Shown: positions 38,266 to 58,206, counted from the stretch's first letter. The stretch is 64,000 nucleotides of DNA from an uncultured Chloroflexia bacterium (GCA_963766645.1 CAVYAY010000001.1:531020-595019), one strand, 5' to 3'. Notes: generated by a model not told the origin, from the sequence alone. Translations and numbers: made by a program.

Positions 38266-38341
38266 TGGTAGCGGTACGGGGATTCGAACCCCGGTTTTAG
38301 CCTTGAGAGGGCTACGTCCTGGTCCCCTAGACGATACCGCC
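38266..38341 (-). tRNA. tRNA-Glu (anticodon CUC), CCA encoded
   Basis: Hand-folded 76 nt: acceptor GGCGGUA/UACCGCU (G1.U72), D stem GUCU/GGAC, anticodon stem UAGCC/GGCUA with loop CU-CUC-AA, T arm CGGGG-UUCGAAU-CCCCG, discriminator A, CCA. Confidence 0.9.
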
Positions 38342-38356
38342 CTGCGAAAGTCGTAG

Positions 38357-38430
38357 TGGCTGGGGAGGGAGGATTCGAACCCCCGCATACGGATCCAGAG
38401 TCCGCTGTCCTACCACTAGACGACTCCCCA
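38357..38430 (-). tRNA. tRNA-Gln (anticodon CUG), CCA encoded
   Basis: Hand-folded 74 nt: acceptor UGGGGAG/CUCCCCA, anticodon stem GCGGA/UCCGU with loop CU-CUG-GA, T arm GGGGG-UUCGAAU-CCUCC, discriminator G, CCA. Confidence 0.9.
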
Positions 38431-45536: not shown

Positions 45537-45760
45537 TGTCTCGATGCCTTCCTGTCTGTTGCAAGCTCTCGCCTGACCAGCGAAGCGACAGTCCCAGAAT
45601 CATAGCAAAGCGGCAACGAAGAACAGGGCCATCCGGCCTCGGTTCCTGCCCATCGGCCCAATACGTGCGGCTTGTCTGGAACGGCCACGCGTGAACTCTA
45701 GGCCCGCGATTTCGGATTCAGTGCACCACCAGCCGCCCCACCAACCCCTTTGGCGCCTCG

Positions 45761-45867
45761 CAGGGGTAGCGGGCAGCAGATGCGAGGGGGCGGGGTGTCC
45801 CTTGGAGACCCTCTTCTCGTTGGGGTCGGGGAGCCGCGGCGCGCAAGCGACGCGCAGCAAGCGCGCC
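45761..45867. repeat. Copy A of a GC-rich intergenic repeat of ~110 nt
   Basis: caggggtagcggg..gcgagggg..ggggtgtccct.ggag.ccctc.tctc.t.ggggtcggg.agc...cgcgcagcaa.cgcg aligns by eye with 52085..52200 at about four positions in five, in the same orientation. Confidence 0.7.
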
Positions 45868-45960
45868 GAGTTATCGACCAGCACCCGGGCCACCTCGGCC
45901 CCTCGTCGCCACGCCCGGCCGGCATCGTCGACGATTACACCACCAGCGCCCGGTAGTCAG

Positions 45961-48015
45961 CTAGAACAACCACGGCGTCGTCGTGTTCACGATTTCCTCA
46001 AACGTCATGATGCAATCGACGCCCGAGATCGTCGTGATGATCTGCGTCGTCCCGGTCGCGCTCGTGAAGTCCTCCGACCAGACGAGCTCCTTGTGATAGT
46101 GGATCCCGCCCTGGAACCGATCTCCGACCAGTGTCCGGGACTGGATGTCCAGCGTCCCGTTGAAGCCCCCGGCGGTCATGATCGTGGCTTGCGTCGCCGA
46201 AATCCTCGTCATCGTCCAGGAACCAACGTTGTTGAACACAGTCCCAATTGGCGGGTTGTTGTCGATGAAGACCTGTAGACACGCGAAGTAGGATTTCAAC
46301 GTGTTCGTCGAAGTCGTCTCAATCGTCTGTATCGTAGGTGGAACTGTAGTGGGCGGCACTGGCGCCTCCGTCGGTGGCAGGGTCACGGTCGTCGGCTCCT
46401 CCGTCGGCGGCACGATGGCAGGCGGTTCGGTCGGTGGTTGTGCCACCGCCGGCGTCGCGGTCGGTGGCAGCGCAACCGCGGGCAGCGTTGGGCCCGGCGT
46501 CGCGACCACCGCGGTAGGCTGATCGCTGATGCTGCTGCCTCCACCCCCGCCAAATACGATGAGGGTCGTAATGACCGTCACGATCAACCCCGTGAGGATG
46601 CCGATGGGAATCCACGACGGTGGCTTCCAGCCGAACGGTAACCACGGTCTGCCACCACCCCCACCGTCTTCCGGCGTCCACGGCACGAACACCTTGCCCG
46701 GCCTCCCTCGCACGATTTGCCCGCCGCCGACGCCGTAGCGGTCCGCCGGCAGCAGCGCATTCGAGACCTCGATGTCGTCGAAGAAACCCGGCTCGCCGGC
46801 CTGGAAGTGATCTCGCAGGATTCGCCCCGAAGGTGTCTCCAGGTAGGACTGCAGCAGGTCATCGAGCTCCCCCAGCCTGACCAGGTTCGCGAACGTCTCC
46901 AAATACACTTCCGGGACGCTGACGACCGCCGATCGATCGCCGCCGGTGATGCGATAGGCAACGTAAGCCCAGGTCGCCGAGACCGGCTCCAGCGAGAACC
47001 CGCCGCGCGAAATCGACCCCACGCCCGCGAAGCCGCTGCCAGTCGGCAGGTGCCCATTCCTGCTCACCGCGTGCAGGTCGCGCAGCTCAGACGGCAGGGG
47101 CAGCCGCCCTGCAACGAGGTCGTCGGCAACAGCGAGATCGGCCTTGGCCCCGGCGCCCTTCAGCGCCTCGCGCGCAATCTGCCAGGACGACTCGAGCTGC
47201 TCCTGCGCCGTAATCGTGTCGTGGCGCGACCGCAGCAGCGCATCCCGCCCCGCCGCGTAAAGGTCCGGCCCGAAGGCGTTGCGGTCGACGTACCAGCCGT
47301 ATCGCTGGCGCCCCGGCTCAACCGCGACGTCCAGGATCGGTGGGAGGGTTGACGTCTCGCCCCGCAGCCGCTGCTCCAGCGCAAGCACACTGCCCGCCGC
47401 GTACGCCGCCGCCGCCCGCAGGCGAAGGCCGTCGACGAACTCGCCGCAGAGTTCCGCTCGCCCCGGCCGCGGCCGGAACAGCATTCCCGGCGAGTCCGTA
47501 TTGTCCATCAGCAGCATCAGGCCCGGCGCGAACGTCCGTGTGTAGAGATTGCAGAGCGCATCATTAAGAGAGGGGTCCGTCTCCACCGAGATATGCGTCG
47601 ACCCTGCCTCCAGCGTCATCGACGCCGGCGTGATCTCATCCAGCTCCGCCCGTCCGCCGGCCGCCCAACCCTCGAGCGCACCCGTGAAGCCCCGCACCAG
47701 CCGCTCCGGCGGCGACGCCACCTCGGCGACGATGCCGTCCGCCATCAACCCGAGACCGCTGCGCGTCAGGTAGAAATCGGGGTTGGTCGGATGCAGCCGA
47801 AGGCCGTCGACACCAACCTTGTGGATGACCTCACGAAAATCGATCTGCTGGTCACCTTCGAAAACCGCGTACTCATGCTCCAGGCCGATACGCCGCCCCT
47901 GCGGCACGTGATTCGCCGCCGTCAGGCGCTGCGCCAGCAGCTCGTCCAGCTGCTCAATCGCGCTGTTCAGACGACGATCCTGCGGCCACGATAGCGCTGG
48001 AATCCCGATCTGCAC
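45961..48015 (-). CDS. Hypothetical membrane protein: N-terminal carboxylate-amine-ligase-like region (weak), one TM helix, Pro/Thr linker, C-terminal extracytoplasmic domain
   Basis: 684 aa with a GTG start. RIGLEHEYAVF and ADGIVAEVASPPE resemble GCS2/GS-type ligase motifs (weak). TM helix WIPIGILTGLIVTVITTLIVFGG, followed by PT-rich TLPPTEAPVPPTTVPPT. Confidence 0.5.
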   Translation of the reverse strand: MQIGIPALSWPQDRRLNSAIEQLDELLAQRLTAANHVPQGRRIGLEHEYAVFEGDQQIDFREVIHKVGVDGLRLHPTNPDFYLTRSGLGLMADGIVAEVASPPERLVRGFTGALEGWAAGGRAELDEITPASMTLEAGSTHISVETDPSLNDALCNLYTRTFAPGLMLLMDNTDSPGMLFRPRPGRAELCGEFVDGLRLRAAAAYAAGSVLALEQRLRGETSTLPPILDVAVEPGRQRYGWYVDRNAFGPDLYAAGRDALLRSRHDTITAQEQLESSWQIAREALKGAGAKADLAVADDLVAGRLPLPSELRDLHAVSRNGHLPTGSGFAGVGSISRGGFSLEPVSATWAYVAYRITGGDRSAVVSVPEVYLETFANLVRLGELDDLLQSYLETPSGRILRDHFQAGEPGFFDDIEVSNALLPADRYGVGGGQIVRGRPGKVFVPWTPEDGGGGGRPWLPFGWKPPSWIPIGILTGLIVTVITTLIVFGGGGGSSISDQPTAVVATPGPTLPAVALPPTATPAVAQPPTEPPAIVPPTEEPTTVTLPPTEAPVPPTTVPPTIQTIETTSTNTLKSYFACLQVFIDNNPPIGTVFNNVGSWTMTRISATQATIMTAGGFNGTLDIQSRTLVGDRFQGGIHYHKELVWSEDFTSATGTTQIITTISGVDCIMTFEEIVNTTTPWLF

Positions 48016-48028
48016 TGCTGTTGGGTTG

Positions 48029-48715
48029 CTACTGGTTCACGGGTGTTTGGTCCCCGTTTCCTTTTTCCAGGCCGTAAATCAGCGGCCGCACCGCTCCCGT
48101 CTGCCCGGCCGGGTTGTAGCCCGCCAGGACGATCGAGCCGGCGGAAACCGGGCGCTGCCCGCTGCCGCCCGCACCGCCACTGGGCTCTTCTGGCACAAAG
48201 TTCGGGTCGGGGTCCATGAAACTCAGAGCGGAAACATGCTGCCCGGAGCTGTCGACGATCGCTGGTTCCAGTACTCCCGAGCTATCGGACGGCGCTTCGG
48301 AACCAGTTTCCGCGCTGGTCTCAGGCCCGACCTCGAGTTTCGGGCTCGCGTCAAAATTGACCGCCGGTGGAATCGATAAGGGGCCTGGGCCAGCCCCCGT
48401 CTGTCCTTCCAACGGCGAAGCCGTTCCGGTCTCAGGACCGACCTCGAGTCTTGGACTGTCGGCAAACATGACGTCCGGCGGAATCGTCAGGGAGGTCGGT
48501 TCCGCGCCGTCTGGCCAGTCCGTGCCTGTTTGCGGGTCGACATCAAGTTTCGGACTCGCGGTGAAGCTGACGTCCGGCGGAATCGACAAGGGTTCCGAAC
48601 CGTGCTGCTCCTCTTCAGCCGCCAACTCCTCGAGCACGCGCTGCTCTTCCGCCGCCTGACGCGCCCGCTCCGCTGCCCGCTCAGCCGCTCCCGGGTCTTC
48701 CGGTTCGCTCGTCAC
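48029..48715 (-). CDS. Hypothetical acidic/disordered protein with 3 x ~35-aa tandem repeats and a C-terminal PLIYGLEKGN motif (B3)
   Basis: Repeats L(S/T)IPP(D/A)V.F.(A/D)SP(K/R)L(D/E)V(D/G)P(Q/E)T. The ~105-nt DNA periodicity is visible across 48330-48600. The protein ends RPLIYGLEKGNGDQTPVNQ. GTGA overlap with B2. Confidence 0.55.
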   Translation of the reverse strand: MTSEPEDPGAAERAAERARQAAEEQRVLEELAAEEEQHGSEPLSIPPDVSFTASPKLDVDPQTGTDWPDGAEPTSLTIPPDVMFADSPRLEVGPETGTASPLEGQTGAGPGPLSIPPAVNFDASPKLEVGPETSAETGSEAPSDSSGVLEPAIVDSSGQHVSALSFMDPDPNFVPEEPSGGAGGSGQRPVSAGSIVLAGYNPAGQTGAVRPLIYGLEKGNGDQTPVNQ

Positions 48716-49194
48716 GCGAAACCACCACCCATCGCGCCACCCGCACCGGTGCCCGTGCCGGGGGGTTGGCCCGTGTCCTGGTTGCCTTTCTCGATGCCGA
48801 AGATCAGCGGTTGCGGCGCCGCACCACTGCTCGGTGGTGTCAGGCCGCTGCTCGGTGGGGAATCGCCGGTACCTGGGCGCTCCTGCGCAGGTGGCGAGCC
48901 GGTTTGCGGGCGTGGCGGCTGCGATGACTCCGGAGCCGTCGGCGCCGATCCGGTTTGCGGACGTGGTTGAGATGGCTCCGCGGCTGCCGGTGCCGCAGGA
49001 GGTGCGCCTCCGCCGGTACGTGGGCGAGAAACTGCCTCGCGCCAGCGCACCCGGTCTGGGTTCCTCTCGTCCATTTGTTTCTCGCGGGCGGCTCGTCGCG
49101 CGTCGCCGCCGGGGAAAAGGTCAGTGAACCGATTCCAGACGCGGACGAGAAGAGACCGGTCATCATAAAAACTCGGATACTCGCTAGCCATCAC
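48712..49194 (-). CDS. Hypothetical Pro-rich protein with a PLIFGIEKGN motif (B2)
   Basis: 160 aa, ending ...APQPLIFGIEKGNQDTGQPPGTGTGAGGAMGGGFA. Confidence 0.5.
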   Translation of the reverse strand: MMASEYPSFYDDRSLLVRVWNRFTDLFPGGDARRAAREKQMDERNPDRVRWREAVSRPRTGGGAPPAAPAAAEPSQPRPQTGSAPTAPESSQPPRPQTGSPPAQERPGTGDSPPSSGLTPPSSGAAPQPLIFGIEKGNQDTGQPPGTGTGAGGAMGGGFA

Positions 49195-49239
49195 TCGCCC
49201 CGATTCGCTGCATATGCTCGCGGAGGCAACGAAGCCACC

Positions 49240-50382
49240 TCACGCATTGATGATGCCTGTATTGCCTTTTTCCAGTCCCAGGATTGCCGGGGGCCTGGGC
49301 GGCTCGTCCCCTGTCCTCGGTTGTGGCGACGTACCCTGACCCTGCTGGCCTTCAGACCCGGACCCGCTTGGCTGGCCGCCCTGCCCCGCTCCCGGACCGC
49401 CACCTCCAGCCGAGCTGCCTCCGCCGGCGCCACCCTGGCCACCGGGAGGAGCCGGCGGGCCGCCCGAGCCTTGCGGCACGGGGACCACAGGCGACGCCGT
49501 CAGAGGAGCTTCACCACTTCCACCACCGCTAAGCCCGCTGCCGCCGCCACCAGACGAAGCCGACTTCAGGTTGAATTCGTCATACAACCGATCCAAATAA
49601 TCGTCGTCGTCGGCGCGGACCCCTCCTGCCGCCATGCGATGCCGAAACGCTTCAAGGGCGTTCATGAACTCCAGGTAGCCCGGATCGCCGGGAGTAAGCC
49701 CTTGCTCGGCCGCAATAGATCGATGGAGAGTCTCGGCGTACTCTTGCTGGCCTTCGGGTGTTGCAAGGCGCTCCGCCTGTTCGCGGGTAACCCGGTCCGC
49801 GAATGTCTCGCCGCCCCCTTCCTCCTGCCCCGCTTGCTCGTCCGCTTCGACTCCACCACCGCTGCCTACGGCCCCCGCCGCTTCGGCTGCCTTTGCGTCG
49901 CGGTATGTCTTGGTGGCACGGCCGTCTGCTCGAGGCCCAAGAGTTGGCGGCGTCAGGCTGCCGGATTGTTTAAGTTGACCCTCAACCCACTCATCTCGCC
50001 CGCCGCTTTCGAGCCACTCCTGGTTTCGCTGTTCCGACTGAGCCCTCTCAGCTTCATTGGCCTGAACTGTGAAGCCAAATCCTGAGCCCCCGCCTATGGT
50101 TGAACCCCAATCGAGAGTGTGCGGACCATCACTGAGTTCTGGGACCACGGCCTCCCACACGCGGCCATCGCCGTGGTAGCGGACCGGGACTTCTATCGCG
50201 TTCGGGGTATCAGAATCAATGGTTACCGTCACGATTCCACCCGGTGGTGCTATCCCGCCGATACGTGGAGTCGCTTCGTTCGTAACTTCCTCCGTGCCTT
50301 GCTGCCTGAGAACTAGGTCGGAGAAGGATTCGGTAAAGATCGGGACATCATCTGCGCTCGGTACTTCGTCAGGCATTTCCAC
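49240..50382 (-). CDS. Hypothetical protein with a Gly/Pro-rich tail and an AILGLEKGN motif (B1)
   Basis: 380 aa, ending ...DEPPRPPAILGLEKGNTGIINA. Confidence 0.5.
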   Translation of the reverse strand: MEMPDEVPSADDVPIFTESFSDLVLRQQGTEEVTNEATPRIGGIAPPGGIVTVTIDSDTPNAIEVPVRYHGDGRVWEAVVPELSDGPHTLDWGSTIGGGSGFGFTVQANEAERAQSEQRNQEWLESGGRDEWVEGQLKQSGSLTPPTLGPRADGRATKTYRDAKAAEAAGAVGSGGGVEADEQAGQEEGGGETFADRVTREQAERLATPEGQQEYAETLHRSIAAEQGLTPGDPGYLEFMNALEAFRHRMAAGGVRADDDDYLDRLYDEFNLKSASSGGGGSGLSGGGSGEAPLTASPVVPVPQGSGGPPAPPGGQGGAGGGSSAGGGGPGAGQGGQPSGSGSEGQQGQGTSPQPRTGDEPPRPPAILGLEKGNTGIINA

Positions 50383-50733
50383 CTCTTGGCGCGATTCACT
50401 GCCAGGCAGCGGGAAGCCTGCTCATGACCGGGGTTTCGAGAATATAATGCCGCCGGATATATTATTCCAGCCTCCCGCGCCCGAGTACCCCGAGGTGAGT
50501 CGACGAACCGCCCCCGCGCAGCGAAAGAGCGACCATGACTAGCGACGACGCCTCGGTAAACGGGATCCTTCACCAGCTGTCTGCCTTTGGCGGCTCCGGC
50601 GACCTCGCAGGTCTGTGGCGCGACTACATGCAAGCCCGCACCTCGCTCTGGCCCTCCCTGTCCGAGGCCCAGCAGAACCAGAATCACCGCCCGTTTCCGA
50701 GAAGTCGCGTTTGGCATCACCGGCGTCTCTTCG

Positions 50734-52026
50734 ATGGAAGAGCTGCGGCCCCTGCTCACGGCGGCGTCCGCGGCCCCGGGCACGCCCGAAGCCTTACAGC
50801 CCCCGGAACCCGGATCGCAGCCAGCTGAAGACACGCCTGCTCCCGCTGCCCAACCCGAGTCGGTCGTACCGCCCCCGGCGAGTCCACCCGCGGCCTCCGC
50901 TCCCCGCTCGTCTCGCGGCCTGCCGAAAGGCCTGATCATCGCCGGCGCCGGCATCCTTGGCCTGGTCGTCCTCGGCGTCATCGCCGTCGTCGCGTTCGGT
51001 GGCGATAGCAAGGACGACCCTCAGGACGCCAGCCAGGCCGCCGCCGCGACGTCCACCCGCCCGGCAGCGACCCGCCCGGCCCCAACGCCGACATCTCAGC
51101 CGTCCCCGACCCCAGAGCCCGAACTCCTGCTGGTAGCCGCCGGCGACGTCGAAGGCTCTTTTCAGCACGTCGTCGCCGTGATCACCGGCGACTGCTCGCC
51201 GCTTCAGCTCGCCAGCGGGCCTGTACAGATCGGCAGCGTCATCCCCGGCGCGGGGACATGGGGCCTCGGCGCGCTCGACCCCGCAACCGGCCTCGTCGAG
51301 CTCCATACCGCGGACGGCCTCGCCGGCCGGCTCAACCCGGACGACCTCAGCTTCGAAGTAGCAACCGCCGACAACGCGCGTTCCGGCAACGGCACGTTCA
51401 GCCAGGACGGCGCCTCCTTCACTGGCAAGTCGTTCCTCAGTCCCGCCCCCGGCTGCTCGCTGGAGCTCGACTCCACCGCCACCTTCGCCTCGCCGCTGTT
51501 CCGCTTCGAAGCCCAGCAGGCTTCCGCCGTCCCGGCAGCCACACTCGCTGGCCCGGCTCCGGCAGCAACTGCAGTGGCGACAACGGCCCCCGCGGCGCCC
51601 ACCCAGCCTCCAGTGCCGACCGCCCCACCCACGCCAACCCAGCCTCCGCTACCGGACATCCCTGCTCTGATCCAGGCCGCCGTCACCGGCGAATACACCC
51701 AGGCCATCCGCAGCGGCAACAGCGCCTACCTGCTTTCCCACCTCGACCCGATCGCAACGTCCTTCTACGGTCAGCAGGCCTGCACTTCTTACCTGCCGAC
51801 CATCAGCGCTGACCCCACCTTCACAATTCAAATCAACGGGATCACCGGACCCGCGTCGTGGACCTGGATGATCTACGGCGAGACAGTAGGGACGATCCCG
51901 GACGCCTACACCTTGCAGGTCACGCTCACGCAACGCGGGAACACCGTGAACGCGTCAGTCCACTTCGCCTGGAACAGCGCTTCCCAGCAGCTACGGGTTT
52001 ACTCGCCCTGCCACCCGGCGCCCTGA
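50734..52026 (+). CDS. Hypothetical single-pass membrane protein with Pro/Ala/Thr-rich linkers and two extracytoplasmic domains
   Basis: Start trimmed to MEELRPLL (ATG 50734). TM helix GLIIAGAGILGLVVLGVIAVVAFGG. Transcribed divergently from B1. Confidence 0.5.
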   Translation: MEELRPLLTAASAAPGTPEALQPPEPGSQPAEDTPAPAAQPESVVPPPASPPAASAPRSSRGLPKGLIIAGAGILGLVVLGVIAVVAFGGDSKDDPQDASQAAAATSTRPAATRPAPTPTSQPSPTPEPELLLVAAGDVEGSFQHVVAVITGDCSPLQLASGPVQIGSVIPGAGTWGLGALDPATGLVELHTADGLAGRLNPDDLSFEVATADNARSGNGTFSQDGASFTGKSFLSPAPGCSLELDSTATFASPLFRFEAQQASAVPAATLAGPAPAATAVATTAPAAPTQPPVPTAPPTPTQPPLPDIPALIQAAVTGEYTQAIRSGNSAYLLSHLDPIATSFYGQQACTSYLPTISADPTFTIQINGITGPASWTWMIYGETVGTIPDAYTLQVTLTQRGNTVNASVHFAWNSASQQLRVYSPCHPAP

Positions 52027-52060
52027 GGCAATCGATTCGTGGCCCGCGACAATTAGACGC

Positions 52061-52098
52061 CCCCGCTACCCCTTCTTCGCAAAGCTGGGGTAGCGGGG
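52061..52098 (+). terminator. 12-bp perfect hairpin 35 nt after the stop at 52026; also forms the left end of repeat copy B
   Basis: ccccgctacccc-(14 nt)-ggggtagcgggg. There is no T-tract, so a terminator function is uncertain. Confidence 0.35.
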
Positions 52099-52200
52099 GC
52101 GCAGCCCATGCGAGGGGAGCCCGAGGGGTGTCCCTCGGAGGCCCTCCTCTCCTGGGGGTCGGGTAGCAGCAACGCGCTAGCGGCGCGCAGCAAACGCGGC
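52085..52200. repeat. Copy B of the GC-rich intergenic repeat
   Basis: Aligns with 45761..45867 in the same orientation. A partial third unit (ggggtgcaacccctgcggggggaggctgaggggtctcccgcagggc) follows at about 52265..52310. Confidence 0.7.
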
Positions 52201-52418
52201 TTGTCCAGGATTGCGCCCGAGCCCGCGCCACCACCCCCTTCGGCCCCAAGCAGCGGGGTCAATAGGGGTGCAACCCCTGCGGGGGGAGGCTGAGGGGTCT
52301 CCCGCAGGGCTCGAACTAGAAAGAAGGCGGAGCGAACAAGCCCGACCGTAAGGAAGGGCAGGACGCGGAGCTTTCGGCGACCCGCGCGCGCTGCCGCTGG
52401 GGGCTCCACACCGGCAGC

Positions 52419-53319: not shown

Positions 53320-53466
53320 CTACGCCTTTAGTAGCCCCCGGCGCCCCAGGGCACGCTCGAGAGCAGGCCGCATCTTCATCTCCCGGAACTCGGCGCTGGC
53401 GAAGTCGAAGCGCTCGATGGCGGCGTCGACCAGATCGCTCACAAAGCTTGCGAACTGATCGTGACT
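53320..53466 (-). pseudogene. Remnant of the conserved C-terminal tail of a TPR-regulator paralog
   Basis: My own translation: ...FVSDLVDAAIERFDFASAEFREMKMRPALERALGRRGLLKA-TAG. Compare ...AAIEHLDFAIAEFREMKMQPALERALGRRGLLKA at 54305 and 63620. It is preceded by TGA TGA in frame. Confidence 0.6.
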
Positions 53467-54308
53467 TCATCACCGACCTCAAGTGTCATCAGGTCGTGCC
53501 CCATCTCCAGCGGGCCCTTGTAGGTCGTTCGAGTTCCCTCGATCACCTCACCCTCACACCCCGGTGGCCCGACGATGTGCGAGAACACGGCCAGCCTCGG
53601 ATGAAGCTGGCTGAACAGCTCGCCGGCCTGCTGCGGCGTCGTGTGGTGGTTGATGATTTGCTCCGTCGTTTCAGGAGCCCGATTCGACGTGCGCCGCATC
53701 AGCTCCGGCGCGCACACTTCATGCACGATCAAGTCGGCTTCGGCGGCGTGCTTGATCAGGTTGGGCGAATACCTTGTATCGCCGGACAGGACGACACTTC
53801 GACCCTCGCTGTCGATACGGAACCCCACGGCAGGCGCCACCGGCCCGTGATCTACCACGAAGGCGGTAACCCTCACGCCGTCCTCCTCGTAGACAAGCCC
53901 CTCCTCGAATTCGCTGACGATCGCTTCGATGCCTTCCTGCGGAAAGCGCTCGTCGAGGTCGCGGCGAATGTGAATGTCCGCCTCGTACGCCAGCTCCAGG
54001 TGTCGCATCAAGTTCTCGGTGCCGGCGGGACCCCAAACGCGGAACGGGGTCGTGCGGCCGAAGATCCATCCCGTCAGCCAGAGATCCGGGATTCCGACTA
54101 CGTGATCGGAATGAAGGTGGGTCAGGAACAACCGATCCGCTCGGCTAAACGGGATGTTGAGCTGCATCAAGCGCTGCGCGGCGCCACGCCCGCAGTCGAA
54201 GAGCAGGCACCGCTCGCCGGCTTCCACCAGAATGCTGGGGCCGAAACGGTCCATCCGTGGCGGCGGAGAGCCTGTGCCCAGCAGAGTCACGCGCATCCTC
54301 GCTGTCAT
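53439..54308 (-). CDS. MBL-fold metallo-hydrolase (RNase Z/BN-like)
   Basis: RVTLLGTGSPPP...LLFDCGRGAAQRL...LFLTHLHSDHVVGIPDL. The ATG 54308 start overlaps the upstream TGA as ATGA. The longer N-terminus in the ORF track is an out-of-frame reading of the upstream gene's tail. Confidence 0.8.
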   Translation of the reverse strand: MTARMRVTLLGTGSPPPRMDRFGPSILVEAGERCLLFDCGRGAAQRLMQLNIPFSRADRLFLTHLHSDHVVGIPDLWLTGWIFGRTTPFRVWGPAGTENLMRHLELAYEADIHIRRDLDERFPQEGIEAIVSEFEEGLVYEEDGVRVTAFVVDHGPVAPAVGFRIDSEGRSVVLSGDTRYSPNLIKHAAEADLIVHEVCAPELMRRTSNRAPETTEQIINHHTTPQQAGELFSQLHPRLAVFSHIVGPPGCEGEVIEGTRTTYKGPLEMGHDLMTLEVGDEVTISSQAL

Positions 54309-57300
54309 GCCTTCAGCAGCCCCCGACGCCCCAGCGCCCGCTCCAGCGCCGGCTGCATCTTCATCTCCCGGAACTCTGCAATGGCGAAGTCGAGGTGCTC
54401 GATCGCGGCGTCGTGCTCGTTGGGGTATTGGTCGAGGAGGAGCTCCGCGAGGCCAAGCCGGATCAACGCCGCTTCCGGCCGGAAACGAATCTTGAGGCAT
54501 GCTTCGAGCCCGGCCTGATAGTACTCAATGGCTTTCTCTGATTCGCCCAGGAAGGCTGCGCCGGCACCGAGGCGGCGCCCAACCGACGATGAGTCAAGCC
54601 ACCAGCCGGCAAATAAGAACGGCGTCAGCCTCTGCATTAACCCGGCGACCATTTCCCGGTCGCCAACGAGAGTCGCGACCTCAAGCAGACTGCTTAGCAC
54701 GGCACCGGCGGATTCATCGTCTGGGTCTAATGGTGTTTCAAAGCGCGCCAGAATCTCGCGGGCCTCGTCAAACCGGCCCATCTCTGCCAGAAGGACAGCT
54801 CGGGCGGACTGCATTGGCCGGCTGGAGTCCTCACGGTAGGTCAGGCACTCCTCCTTATAGCCGAGGAGATCCAGGATTCGGATGACCGCCCAGGAACCAC
54901 CCGAGGGCGCGGCTGCCTGCTCGGAGTCGGCGATGCCCATAGCTCTCGCGGCGGACCCTGCCGTCTCGAGTTTCCCATCCAAAAGGTCCAGCACAAACAT
55001 CGACCAGGTGGTCCTGTAACCGAGCGAAACGTCTCGCGTGCGTTCTGCAAGTGCCTTCATCTCCGCCAACGACTGCTCCGCTCTTGCTCGGTCTCCGAGT
55101 TCGAGCAAGAGGCTGGTTGCCAGGCTCTGCAGCGCGTCCGCAGTGACCTTCGCGCTGACGCCTTCACGAGGTCGCTGCCAGTATTCCTCAACCAGGTCGT
55201 AGAGTGCTTCACGGTCTTGGAGCGCGCGTAGGTTGCGAAACGCCCAGCCGGCCGCGACAGCAAACGCTTTGTTGTCCCTGCTGGCTCGGGCAGATTCGAT
55301 GGCGCGCCTCAAGAAGACGTGACCCTCCTTGGGGCGGACTGTGAAGAGGAGGCGCAGTCCCTCGTAGACGTCGGCGTAAACCCGTTCCACCGTCCCCGCC
55401 CTAGAGTGCGTATTCGCGCGTTTGCACCACAGGTCGAACTCTGCCGAACGGTACATGACGGGGCCGGCAAACGTACGCTCCAATGCCTCGAGCGTCAGGA
55501 TCGAAATGCGGGCCAACTGCGCCTGGTCTCCGGTCGCCTCGGCGAGCTTGAACGCCTCGGGCATCACGACATCCACCACCCGCCGCGGCTCACCCAGCGG
55601 CATCAATGCCTCCGAAAGCGCCACCAGTAGGTCACAACGCTTCAGCTTGTCCTCCGGGTCCAGCACCTCCTGCACCTTGAGGGCCTGTTGCAGGTGGCGC
55701 TCGGCCTCGCCGTAATCGAAAACGTTTGTGGCGCGCGCCGCCGCCAGCTCGCCATACTCCACCGCCTTCTTGAGGTCTTCGGGCGTCGAAGAGTACGAGT
55801 AGTGCTCCGCCAGCTCGGCCGCGTGCTCTTCGAGCCGGCCGCCCGTAGACCGCCTCGAGCGCTCGCGCCACCTGCTGGTGTAGCCGGATGCGCCGCGGCG
55901 CGATCGTCTCCTCGTAGAGCGTCTGGCGGAAGAAGGCGTGCGCGAACCGATATGCCACCGCCGCGCCGACGCCGCTGCGCTCCTCGACGACCGCGCGCTC
56001 GACGGCCTCTTCCAAGCGCGCCGTAGATCTCCTCTTCCGGCAGCCCGGCGACCTGCTGCAGCACATCAAGCCTGAACTCGCGTCCCATCACAGCCGCGAT
56101 AGCGAGGACCTGGTTTGTCTTCTCGCTGAGGCGCGAAAGCCGTCTGCCGACCACATCGCGTAGGCCCTCCGGTATGCCGACACCTTCGCCACCCTGGGCA
56201 ACGTAGCGGTTGCCTTCCCGTACGACGATGCCTTCCTCGACCAGATAGCGCAGGACCTCCTGCACGAACAGCGGGTTGCCCTCGGTCTGGCGGTGCACGG
56301 CTTCGGCCTGACCCCAGGGCGTCGCCTGGCCGCGAATCGCTTCGTACATGCGATGCACCTCGTCGACGGTCAGGCCGCGCAGGGGGATGCGCGCGAAAGT
56401 GCCGACGCGGCGCAGCTCGCCCAACGTGGCGGAGAGCGGGTGGCTGCGGTCGACCTCGACGTCGCGGTATGTGCCGACGATGAGCAGCCGGGCGCCCTCC
56501 AGGTTGCGCGCGACGTGCAGCAGCAGATCCAGCGTGCCGCGGTCGGCCCAGTGCAGGTCCTCCAGCACGATGACCAGCGGCTGCACCGACGCCGCGTTGT
56601 GCAAGAACGTCGTGATGGCATTGAGCAGCCTCCAGCGGTCGTCCTCCGGGTCTGAAGCCCCGCGCAGTCCGACCTGGACGCGGTCTCTAACCTCGGACAC
56701 AATGCGCGCCACGTCGGCCGCACCGCTTCCCAGTTCGGAGCGCAGCGCCTCCGGGTCGCGGTCGAGGACGTAGCTGCGCATCGCCTCGACGAAGGCCAGG
56801 TAGGGCAGGCTCAGCGAGCCTTCCTCGTAGCAGTGACCGACGAGCAGGCGGCCGCCGCGCATTGAAGCGTACGTCGCGAGTTGCTCGCAAACCGTCGTCT
56901 TGCCGATGCCGGGCTCACCGACGACCATCACAAGCCCGCCTTGCCCGGAGACCGCGGCATCGTAGGCCTGTTGCATCTGCCGCAGCTCCGCCTCCCGCCC
57001 CACGAAAACCCGGCGGTACAGGGGATCTGCCCCGCGCGGTTCCGCAGGTTGTTCCACTGACCCCCCGGTTCCGCCTGCCAGATTGCTCGATTGGCCGATT
57101 GCTGCCAGCGCCTCGCGTACCTCAGTGGCAGATCCAGGGCGCTTAGTAGCGTCCTTCTCCAACAGGCGCAGGATTAGCGCCTCCAGCCCCGGCGGGCAGT
57201 CGGGCCGATGCCAGGTCGGCGCCACCGGCGGCGTGTTGAGGTGCTGCCCGATGATCGCCACGCTCTCGTCACCGACGAAGGGCGGCCTGCCACAGACCAT

Positions 57301-58206
57301 CTCATACAGCATCGCGCCGAGGCTGTAGAGGTCGGATTGAGGCGTCACCTCACCACCCATCGCCTGCTCCGGCGGCATGTAGGAAACGGTCCCCACCATC
57401 ATCCCCGCCTGCGTCAGCCTGCTGCGGTCCACCGCGACCGCGAGGCCGAAGTCGCCGATCATCGCCCGCCCGTCCTCCGCCAGCCAGACGTTCCCCGGCT
57501 TGAGGTCCCTATGGATGATGCCCTTCGAGTGTGAGAACTCGAGCCCCAGGCAGGTCTCCGTGGCGATCTTCACGGCCTGCTCGATCGAGAGCTTGTGCTC
57601 CGGGGCGTCCTCGATCACGCCCTCCACGTCGCCGCCGGGCAGCACCGGCAGGACGAGGTAGGGCTGGCCGTTCTCTTCACCGATGTCGTAGACGGTGACA
57701 ATGTGGGGGTGGGAACCGAGGCGTCCCATAGCCTGCGCCTCTCGGGTGACGCGGACTCGCGCTGCCTCGTCCAGGCCCTCGGTCTTGATCAGCGCGAAGG
57801 CGACGTCGCGGTCGAGCTGGGCGTCGTGGGCCAGGTAGACCTTCTTCTTGCCGCCCTCGCCGAGGAACTTGCTTACGGTGTAGCGGCCGTTGGCGAAGGA
57901 GGCGGGCTCGGACCGAGCCTCTGGTTCTGTACCCATCTGGGAAGCAGGCTTCCCGGCGTTTGCGCCGAGGCCACGCTCCGCTGCTGCGACAAGGGCACGC
58001 GCGTCGCCATTGTCTGGATCGAGCGTCAGGGCGTCGCTTGCCGACTGATGTACCTTTCGCCAATCACGGCCAACGACAGCTGCCTCCGCTTCGTCCAGGA
58101 GGCGGTCAATCTGTCGTTGGACTCGCTCGCTCGTCACTCTATCGCCCGTCACAGCATGTACTTTGTTGCCGGCTGCCATGGTCTTACGGGAGCGTGAGGG
58201 TGTCAA
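54305..58206 (-). pseudogene. Ser/Thr protein kinase - AAA/STAND ATPase - TPR regulator, spread over three frames (frameshifts near 56030 and 55860)
   Basis: Kinase motifs: FLGEGGKKKVYLAHD, HRDLKPGNVWL, DFGLA, SYMPPE. P-loop VVGEPGIGKTTV. Frame 2 has LEEAVERAVVEERSGVGAAVAYRFAHAFFRQTLYEE...EAVYG. Frame 3 has RLEEHAAELAEHYSYSS...VEYGELAAARATNVFDYGEAERHLQQAL plus TPRs running to LLKA. The span is 3902 nt. Confidence 0.75.

Follow-up and report, generated by a model that had tools for sequence, protein, structure and literature searches.

A predicted ligase-fold membrane protein family linked to disordered proteins that share an EKGN motif in Chloroflexota and Actinomycetota

A stretch of 64,000 nucleotides (nt) of DNA from an uncultured Chloroflexia bacterium (GCA_963766645.1 CAVYAY010000001.1:531020-595019; hereafter the window) contains an operon-like block of four genes, three of which encode disordered proteins (B1, B2 and B3) sharing the short motif EKGN, while the fourth encodes a membrane protein, L, with a predicted carboxylate-amine ligase fold. 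A ligase-type fold with fitting residues on its strands, selection of the motif at the protein level and a linkage between motif-bearing open reading frames (ORFs) and L homologs, detected in both directions, were all observed. The EKGN motif and L may form a new protein-tagging or protein-modifying system, and there is a real chance that the chemistry of L is new. The module consists of a glutamine synthetase (GS)-type ligase fold with disordered partners, and the searchable literature on EKGN, on PafA-like or Dop-like families and on amidoligases yielded no description of it.

The four genes, with all features named within them, are on the minus strand in the order B1 (49240-50382, 380 amino acids (aa)), B2 (48712-49194, 160 aa), B3 (48029-48715, 228 aa) and L (45961-48015, 684 aa). 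As read from the sequence, the gap between B1 and B2 is 45 nt, the start of B3 overlaps the stop of B2 (GTGA) and the gap between B3 and L is 13 nt, so the genes are tightly packed, which bears out the consecutive, co-directional order and the B2-B3 overlap given in a preliminary description of this DNA made from the sequence alone. Residues P, G, A, S, T, E, D and Q make up 71-72% of B1-B3, B2 being a Pro/Gly-rich and B3 an acidic disordered protein, and the maximum 19-residue hydropathy stays below 0.9, indicating that none of the three has a transmembrane (TM) helix or a segment resembling a signal peptide. Their earlier portrayal as low-complexity proteins without signal peptides was thus correct, and so was the claim of a motif shared near their C-termini. 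B1 ends in PPAILGLEKGNTGIINA, B2 contains PQPLIFGIEKGNQDTGQPPG and B3 ends in RPLIYGLEKGNGDQTPVNQ; upon re-translation, the motif reads PPAILGLEKGN in B1 (49261-49293), QPLIFGIEKGN in B2 (48781-48813) and RPLIYGLEKGN in B3 (48056-48088), at 6, 22 and 8 residues from the C-terminus, respectively. B3 additionally carries three tandem repeats of about 35 aa (LSIPPDVSFTASPKLDVDPQTG...) at residues ~43-150 (48303-48591), encoded by a 79-nt DNA unit whose copies are 70-72% identical and spaced 99-111 nt.

In the six-frame translation of the window EKGN occurs exactly three times, once in each of B1, B2 and B3. The background frequency of this tetrapeptide, measured on related loci, was about 4e-7 per residue, 1.95 million residues having an expectation of 0.84. 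At this rate B1-B3, with 768 residues in total, would contain about 3e-4 copies, compared to the three observed; the presence of EKGN in these proteins was thereby confirmed to be far beyond chance. Six-frame ORFs of 80 loci containing L homologs (L loci), taken from GTDB species representatives, and of two more loci contained 53 copies of EKGN versus 0.84 expected from composition, and five permutations of the same residues occurred 0-1 times each. Every third codon position of the motif varies synonymously across loci, indicating that selection acts on the peptide and not on an RNA element. Arg takes the place of Lys in three loci, and the fourth position is mostly N or Q, with D in a few loci and Thr in three. 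Glu is the sole invariant carboxylate side chain of the motif.

Protein L comprises a cytoplasmic domain (approximately residues 1-432; 46720-48015), a single TM helix detected by hydropathy (IPIGILTGLIVTVITTLIV, residues 469-487; 46555-46611), and a Pro/Thr-rich linker with a C-terminal outside domain of about 120 aa (45961-46554), a part that varies between homologs. The sequence GLEHEYAVF (47860-47886), identified by conservation and hhalign as the strand-1 GhExE signature of carboxylate-amine ligases, lies in the cytoplasmic domain. This organization and the predicted fold uphold the initial view of L as a ligase-like domain followed by a TM helix, a linker and an outside domain.

Residues 1-460 of L gave no Pfam or NCBIfam match at E <= 1, and L gave no PDB sequence or profile match and no PADLOC or PHROGs match; these four family databases likewise yielded nothing significant for B1-B3, for the product of a divergent neighboring gene or for eight small partner proteins from other loci. 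The preliminary description had held that a match of L to a well-known unrelated family would speak against its interpretation, and no such family was found. A word-indexed search with L returned 105 homologs, every one labelled hypothetical, and a hidden Markov model scan of 1.84 billion representatives gave 976 clusters at E <= 1e-3, of which 583 at E <= 1e-30 (clusters counted at 50% identity). L loci are found mainly in Chloroflexota (Dehalococcoidia, Chloroflexia, Anaerolineae and Limnocylindria) and Actinomycetota (Acidimicrobiia, Microthrix, Blastococcus and others), with one in Dormibacterota and a few in bins under other labels. Cultured hosts include Blastococcus sp. URHD0036 (locus L081) and Geodermatophilus sp. 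SYSU D00691 (homolog P0104). A TM helix after residue 380 is present in 127 of 136 long family members, while 86 members are short and soluble. The additional C-terminal parts of homologs contain immunoglobulin (Ig)-like ectodomains (TIG, He_PIG, Cep192_D4 and HYR), and no second enzymatic domain was found in these parts.

The AlphaFold2 (AF2) model of L residues 1-460, built from a 39-sequence alignment, had a mean predicted local distance difference test score (pLDDT) of 90.1 and a predicted template modelling score of 0.88, and was confident over residues 6-430. Foldseek comparison of the model to the PDB placed Dop first (7oy3, E = 3e-7, probability 1.0), and the top six matches were all Dop entries (E = 3e-7 to 2e-6, 349-519 aligned columns), followed by YbdK/GCS2 (1r8g, 5e-6), glutamine synthetases (from 1e-3) and PafA (4b0t, 3e-3). 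TM-scores of the model against structures of the Pup enzymes were modest, 0.43-0.45. The model shows the GS-like cradle of curved antiparallel β-sheet and the small C-terminal domain that mark the PafA/Dop fold.

Ten residues are invariant in 42 diverse L homologs, namely G44, E46, E48, D93, E98, H141, R181, R183, R186 and E188, and all of them are on β-strands of the model (42-53, 89-93, 96-100, 133-145, 177-183 and 186-192). The superfamily is marked by a GhExE motif on strand 1, acidic residues on strands 2 and 3, a His on strand 4 and Arg fingers (Iyer, Burroughs, Aravind; PMC2588565), and the invariant residues of L, as positioned in the model, fit this active-site pattern. The GhExE motif (G44-L-E46-H-E48) and D93 correspond to the strand-1 motif and catalytic Asp by which PafA and Dop are recognized. 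In confident local segments of the hhalign alignment between the L profile and a PafA/Dop alignment, GLEHEY of L was paired with GIETEY of PafA, and D93/E98 with PafA D57/E63; the PafA query sequence matched 4b0t at E = 8e-155. We take PafA D57 to be catalytic, from the D-to-N variant in the 4bjr chain. In the superfamily, Arg fingers are located on and before strand 5 and an acidic residue on strand 6; L has conserved R181, R183, R186, E188 and E192 within its strands 177-183 and 186-192, and superfamily positions were assigned by strand order only. Because fold and strand residues match while matches to family profiles are absent, L would represent, according to the model, a new and very divergent family with the carboxylate-amine ligase fold, whose active site looks complete.

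The association of the motif with L was tested in both directions. With the pattern E[KR]G[NQDT] and strict criteria for adjacency, a motif ORF adjacent to L was found in 53 of the 80 L loci. In 45 loci the motif starts the ORF, typically of 60-130 aa, as M-G-E-K-G-N, with the N-terminal variants MEKGN, MSEKGQ, MGEKGT, MGEKGD and MERGN; in the other 8 it is close to the C-terminus, as in the window. In the 45 loci the motif is usually a few hundred nt upstream of the L match and on the same strand (median of about 390 nt to the start of the match). The remainder of the partner sequence is unlike between subfamilies, which have only the motif in common: some partners are of an amphipathic-helix type, some are Gly/Ala-rich with acidic tails, and in Acidimicrobiia EKGN precedes a zinc ribbon, CxxCGEPRGDxxPCPxCGM. 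Partners of the last type, with the form EKGN-x(3-5)-CxxCGEPRGDxxPCPxCGM[DE], were observed at the Acidimicrobiia-type loci L003, L006, L008, L009, L024, L052, L067 and L083, the conserved ribbon forming the end of the partner; in L003 and L083 the motif is preceded by a second, degenerate copy, GFEKG. When 1085 ORFs from 83 loci were clustered, no conserved neighbor emerged other than L and the motif ORFs; specifically, no proteasome, AAA unfoldase, protease, transporter, sortase, exosortase or secretion gene was conserved in L neighborhoods, and neither this clustering nor the neighbors in the window linked any metabolic gene to L. Several metagenome-assembled genomes carry two separate L loci (L008/L056, L012/L017, L007/L064, L050/L074, L029/L031 and L057/L078), and most of these pairs include at least one locus with one or more motif ORFs of its own; locus L017 has three consecutive MEKGN ORFs, in parallel to the three B genes of the window.

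For the reverse test, metagenome contigs were scanned for the commonest 18-mer encoding MGEKGN, giving at least 120 matches (loci L085-L204). Among the matches listed, 99 were internal to longer ORFs (46 HsdM-type methylases, 26 sugar-binding proteins and 27 others), so the tetrapeptide EKGN alone is not diagnostic, and this heavy contamination made a filter for motif-initiated ORFs necessary. Fourteen of the matches listed begin an ORF of 50-145 aa, and 7 of these 14 have an L homolog 0-774 nt away, compared to 0 of the 106 others (Fisher's exact test, p = 6e-8); several of the remaining motif-initiated ORFs are on contigs of about 1 kb. These counts, along with those of the forward search, substantiate the earlier expectation that the motif would be linked to L homologs. 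As a separate observation, GEKGN with the same codons is conserved inside HsdM-type N6-DNA methylases (GEKGNDGGQFFTPR) and likewise inside a family of sugar-binding proteins (GEKGNYVELVGKESD).

In seven L homologs (P0014, P0015, P0017, P0027, P0154 and the L proteins of loci L003 and L009) the motif is part of L itself: beyond a second TM helix, these proteins have a short tail that ends in ΦEKGN. EKGN was found nowhere else in 224 members of the L family. The order in the fused proteins is N-terminal domain, first TM helix, ectodomain, second TM helix and motif tail, so that motif and ligase-like domain face the same side of the membrane; with partners devoid of signal peptides, that side fits the cytoplasm. 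Of these loci, at least four (L003, L009, L083 and L084) have a separate motif gene upstream as well.

B1 consists of an N-terminal Ig-like (Big_13-like) domain, for which the Pfam match is weak, a long disordered region rich in Gly, Pro and acidic residues, and the C-proximal motif. An Ig-like domain is unusual in a protein devoid of a signal peptide. In the clade to which the L protein of the window belongs, the gene directly upstream of L ends in the motif (loci L001/L004, L007, L077, L084 and L205), examples of C-termini being ...SSPQGFEKGNALQVG, ...PEAGVEKGNRPGARVMG and ...AAIGLEKGNTAVSRN. A number of these upstream genes encode B1 orthologs, with the Big_13 domain, a conserved WQRARN helix, the sequence LTPPRPVTGG, a Gly-rich linker of variable sequence and the motif. 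LTPPRP[VI]TGG, located between the Ig-like domain and the Gly-rich linker, is shared by the orthologs of L001, L007, L077 and L084, and B1 of the window has a degenerate LTPPTLGP in its place. A word-indexed search with the N-terminal region of the window's B1 gave no homologs, and a profile built from six B1-like proteins identified 32. G[LFV]EKGN was preserved at 4-24 residues from the C-terminus in 31 of these 32, despite highly variable linkers, the single exception being a 73-aa fragment; the motif therefore recurs in homologs elsewhere, as the preliminary description would have it. The nearest relative of L, P0001 (69% identity), is encoded on a contig with the same layout as the window, that is, a divergent gene, three co-directional genes and then L, and the arrangement of the window is a conserved sub-type of L loci.

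A mechanism can be outlined by analogy with the enzymes of pupylation. L would be a membrane-anchored, ATP-dependent enzyme of the GS-fold carboxylate-amine ligase superfamily, with PafA and Dop as its nearest structural relatives, and its cytoplasmic domain would recognize Φ/G-E-[K/R]-G-[N/Q/D/T] in the disordered chain ends of B1, B2 and B3 or, in some relatives, on the cytoplasmic tail of L itself. Phosphorylation of the motif Glu side chain would yield an acyl phosphate, which would then react with an amine. Enzymes with this fold phosphorylate the γ-carboxylate of a Glu and transfer it to an amine, as PafA does with the side chain of the C-terminal Glu of Pup (PMC8599861). Glu is the candidate reacting residue because it is the sole invariant carboxylate of the motif, in which Lys can be Arg and position 4 varies. 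The amine would most likely be the ε-amino group of a Lys in another protein or motif, leading to Pup-like tagging or cross-linking; alternatively, it could be ammonia or a small amine, leading to a side-chain modification or amide. Physical recognition, catalysis, reacting residue and acceptor are what we infer from fold, conservation and linkage. On this analogy, a covalent action of L at the motif seems to us about evenly balanced between right and wrong, and the narrower proposal of protein-protein conjugation is put forward tentatively. At its fullest, and with the same tentativeness, the module might be a second, independently evolved GS-fold conjugation system in which the internal Glu of a terminal ΦEKGN motif, and not a C-terminal Gly-Glu as in Pup, is activated by ATP and joined by isopeptide bonds to lysines of target proteins or of further motif copies. 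Since each motif holds both a Glu and a Lys, L could on this proposal chain the disordered motif proteins covalently to one another and to its own tail; in Chloroflexota and Actinomycetota the outcome would be a cross-linked protein layer on the cytoplasmic side of the membrane.

Several results weigh against a ligase of this kind acting on the motif. The overall hhalign comparison of L to the PafA/Dop alignment was not significant (probability 0.8%), L gave no Pfam match to Pup_ligase (PF03136) or GCS2 (PF04107), and its strand 4 reads H141-x-S143 instead of the superfamily [HD]x[NH]. No detectable motif ORF was present near L in 27 of the 80 loci, and no acceptor, unfoldase or protease was linked to L in the clustering of neighbors or in the window. 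EKGN is also found inside unrelated folded proteins such as HsdM and sugar-binding proteins, and in the zinc-ribbon partners the motif probably precedes a small folded domain and is not always a free end. In the AF2 prediction for the P0017 fusion protein the motif tail had a pLDDT of 31-46 and was undocked, which is uninformative either way.

Comparison to known systems delimits what may be new in L. With the PafA/Dop-Pup system L shares the GS-type β-sheet cradle, Dop being its top Foldseek match, the strand-1 GhExE motif and the Asp/Glu pair aligned with PafA D57/E63, and in both cases the gene of the enzyme adjoins small or disordered proteins with a short Gly-containing motif and an essential Glu. 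Some PafA homologs are membrane-anchored (PMC2588565), as is L. By contrast, L is not recognized by the Pup_ligase family and aligns with PafA/Dop at an hhalign probability below 1%; Pup has 50-90 aa and a C-terminal G-[EQ], whereas the partners of L carry ΦE[KR]G[NQDT], with the Glu internal, either right at the N-terminus or at a distance of 2-24 residues from the C-terminus, and none ends in G-[EQ]. Furthermore, L has several unrelated partner families, with up to three partners per operon and the motif sometimes fused to L, no proteasome, Mpa/ARC or PAC2 genes are linked to it, and its distribution is centered on Chloroflexota and Acidimicrobiia. YbdK/GCS2 shares the superfamily fold with L (1r8g, E = 5e-6) and has a catalytic domain of similar size, whereas L lacks the GCS2 Pfam match, adds a C-terminal subdomain, a TM anchor and an ectodomain, and is linked to motif-bearing proteins and not to metabolic genes. 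The other new ligase families of the superfamily reported in the 2008 comparative analysis by Iyer et al. had no Pup-like small ORFs nearby, pupylation being distinctive in this respect (PMC2588565). The combination of a GS-fold enzyme with small disordered proteins also resembles GS type I and its factors. IF7 and IF17 are small disordered inactivating factors that bind cyanobacterial glutamine synthetase; unlike the partners of L, they are not known to be encoded in an operon with GS or to have EKGN, and they act on a metabolic GS dodecamer, and L is not a GS by sequence.

Alternatives to covalent chemistry at the motif were weighed on the same evidence. The motif could be a docking or regulatory peptide that binds L non-covalently, as a pseudo-substrate, inhibitor, activator or tether, much as IF7 and IF17 bind GS, the true substrates being small molecules; we hold this main rival improbable, yet deserving of serious consideration. 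Genomic linkage and motif conservation fit it equally well, a motif tail in cis, behind the second TM helix, would lend itself naturally to autoinhibition as a pseudo-substrate, genes for an acceptor or for downstream machinery are absent from the neighborhood, and YbdK/GCS2, a small-molecule ligase, is among the best fold matches. On the other hand, 4-5 residues make a short motif for stable regulatory binding, partners from several unrelated families, and up to three of them in one operon, would be odd as regulators of a single enzyme, the invariant residue is Glu, which is the substrate type of the superfamily, and L is not linked to metabolic genes. A Dop-like role, in which L would be a hydrolase or deamidase that deamidates the motif Asn/Gln or cleaves at the motif to mature or release the partners, we consider unlikely. 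The prevalence of N or Q at position 4, with a few D, echoes the C-terminal Gln/Glu dimorphism of Pup, whose Gln is deamidated by Dop (PMC8599861), the motifs of the window are followed by short, removable tails of 6-22 residues, and Dop structures lead the fold matches ahead of PafA; yet Dop and PafA are close homologs (PMC8599861), so their Foldseek rank does not discriminate function, the Thr found at position 4 in three loci cannot be deamidated, and in most partners, where the motif is at the extreme N-terminus, cleavage would free only a pentapeptide.

We give little credence to the idea that L is a maturase of natural products, namely ribosomally synthesized and post-translationally modified peptides (RiPPs), with B1-B3 and the small M(G)EKGN proteins as their precursors. 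The partner ORFs are unannotated, and a small ORF beside an ATP-dependent amide-forming enzyme is a common RiPP layout. RiPP precursors are, however, poorly matched by partners of 50-380 aa whose conservation is limited to 4-5 residues, either right at the N-terminus or close to the C-terminus, with no organization into leader and core; no protease, transporter, tailoring gene or other accessory gene is conserved nearby, and some copies of the motif are fused to L. Even less credible is a signal for export or sorting, with L as part of the sorting machinery, as the membrane anchor and ectodomain of L and the C-proximal motif of the window might suggest. The likeness to LPXTG/sortase and PEP-CTERM/exosortase systems lies in a short motif near the C-termini of dissimilar proteins and a dedicated membrane protein. 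C-terminal sorting signals consist of a motif followed by a TM helix and basic residues, whereas B1-B3 have no signal peptide or hydrophobic segment and no TM helix or basic tail after the motif; in the fusions the TM helix precedes the motif, most family members have the motif at the N-terminus, and its position on the membrane side of the ligase-fold domain fits the cytoplasm. Sortases and exosortases are transpeptidases, whereas L has a predicted ligase fold, and no sortase, exosortase or secretion genes are linked to it. Of the three fates that the preliminary description had offered for recognition by a common partner, processing, ligation or export, the suggestion is narrowed to a putative ligation or modification by L, and export is unlikely. 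A chance feature of low-complexity sequence, or an RNA or leader-peptide element, might have been suspected since the proteins are of low complexity and most motif ORFs are just upstream of L. Such an origin is effectively refuted by the roughly 60-fold enrichment of EKGN, with permuted controls at 0-1, by synonymous variation at each third codon position and by retention of the motif in 31 of 32 B1 homologs with variable linkers; in addition, the motif is found at either end of proteins as well as fused to L, and there was no Rfam match. Covalent ligation or modification of the motif by L is the reading we prefer.

Upstream of B1 and divergent from it, on the plus strand, a gene (50587-52026) encodes a membrane protein with a TM helix, Pro/Thr linkers and outside domains, in agreement with the preliminary description, with some doubt as to its start codon. 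The product resembles the L ectodomain only marginally (E = 0.04). Among the loci, only that of the nearest relative, P0001, has a divergent gene of similar size, the others having no conserved equivalent, and the product may be associated with the L system.

A hairpin-rich direct repeat of about 145 nt (~79% identical) flanks the whole 6.3-kb block formed by the L operon and the divergent gene, with its left copy (45728-45872, plus strand) just past the 3' end of L and its right copy (52054-52202, plus strand) just past the 3' end of the divergent gene. Only these two copies are present in the window, and neither is matched in Rfam. Against shuffled controls, the right copy shows much better folding (z = -4.6), unlike the left copy. 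The repeat could be an intergenic element resembling repetitive extragenic palindromes, a pair of terminators or the boundaries of a cassette. A scan for promoters and terminators gave nothing useful for the minus-strand operon, and the only Rfam matches in the window were two adjacent tRNA genes (38269-38430, minus strand).

The other genes neighboring the block are unrelated to the L system, and encode CNNM, histidine phosphatase, DUF4389, YjbR and metallo-β-lactamase-fold hydrolase proteins and a kinase-AAA-TPR regulator. A second direct repeat, of 105 nt and 86% identity, has one copy (53324-53428) past the 3' end of the metallo-β-lactamase-fold ORF (53439-54500, minus strand) and another (54309-54413) past its 5' end, the latter also falling inside this long ORF and at the 3' end of the TPR ORF (54305-55762, minus strand). 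The TPR ORF is overlapped by a Ser/Thr kinase + AAA_16 ORF (55642-58206, minus strand), whose last ~130 residues look Arg-rich and out of frame, a plausible continuation being found in ORF 55632-56069; frameshifts or sequencing errors may have split a single large STAND-type regulator into the ORFs of 54305-58206. The G+C content is 0.54-0.59 in the first ~12 kb of the window and 0.62-0.68 thereafter, and there may be a compositional boundary near 12 kb.

The L family, with about 976 clusters at 50% identity and dedicated disordered partners, has no entry in any family database searched, and it belongs to phyla abundant in soil, groundwater and wastewater, in which genes of this kind are mostly labelled hypothetical. 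To our knowledge, pupylation is the only protein-tagging system so far built on a GS-fold ligase. If L does ligate or modify the motif, it would represent a new post-translational chemistry in bacteria, its minimal peptide tag and ligase would be a pair of possible biotechnological use, and a function would be assigned to hundreds of hypothetical disordered proteins.

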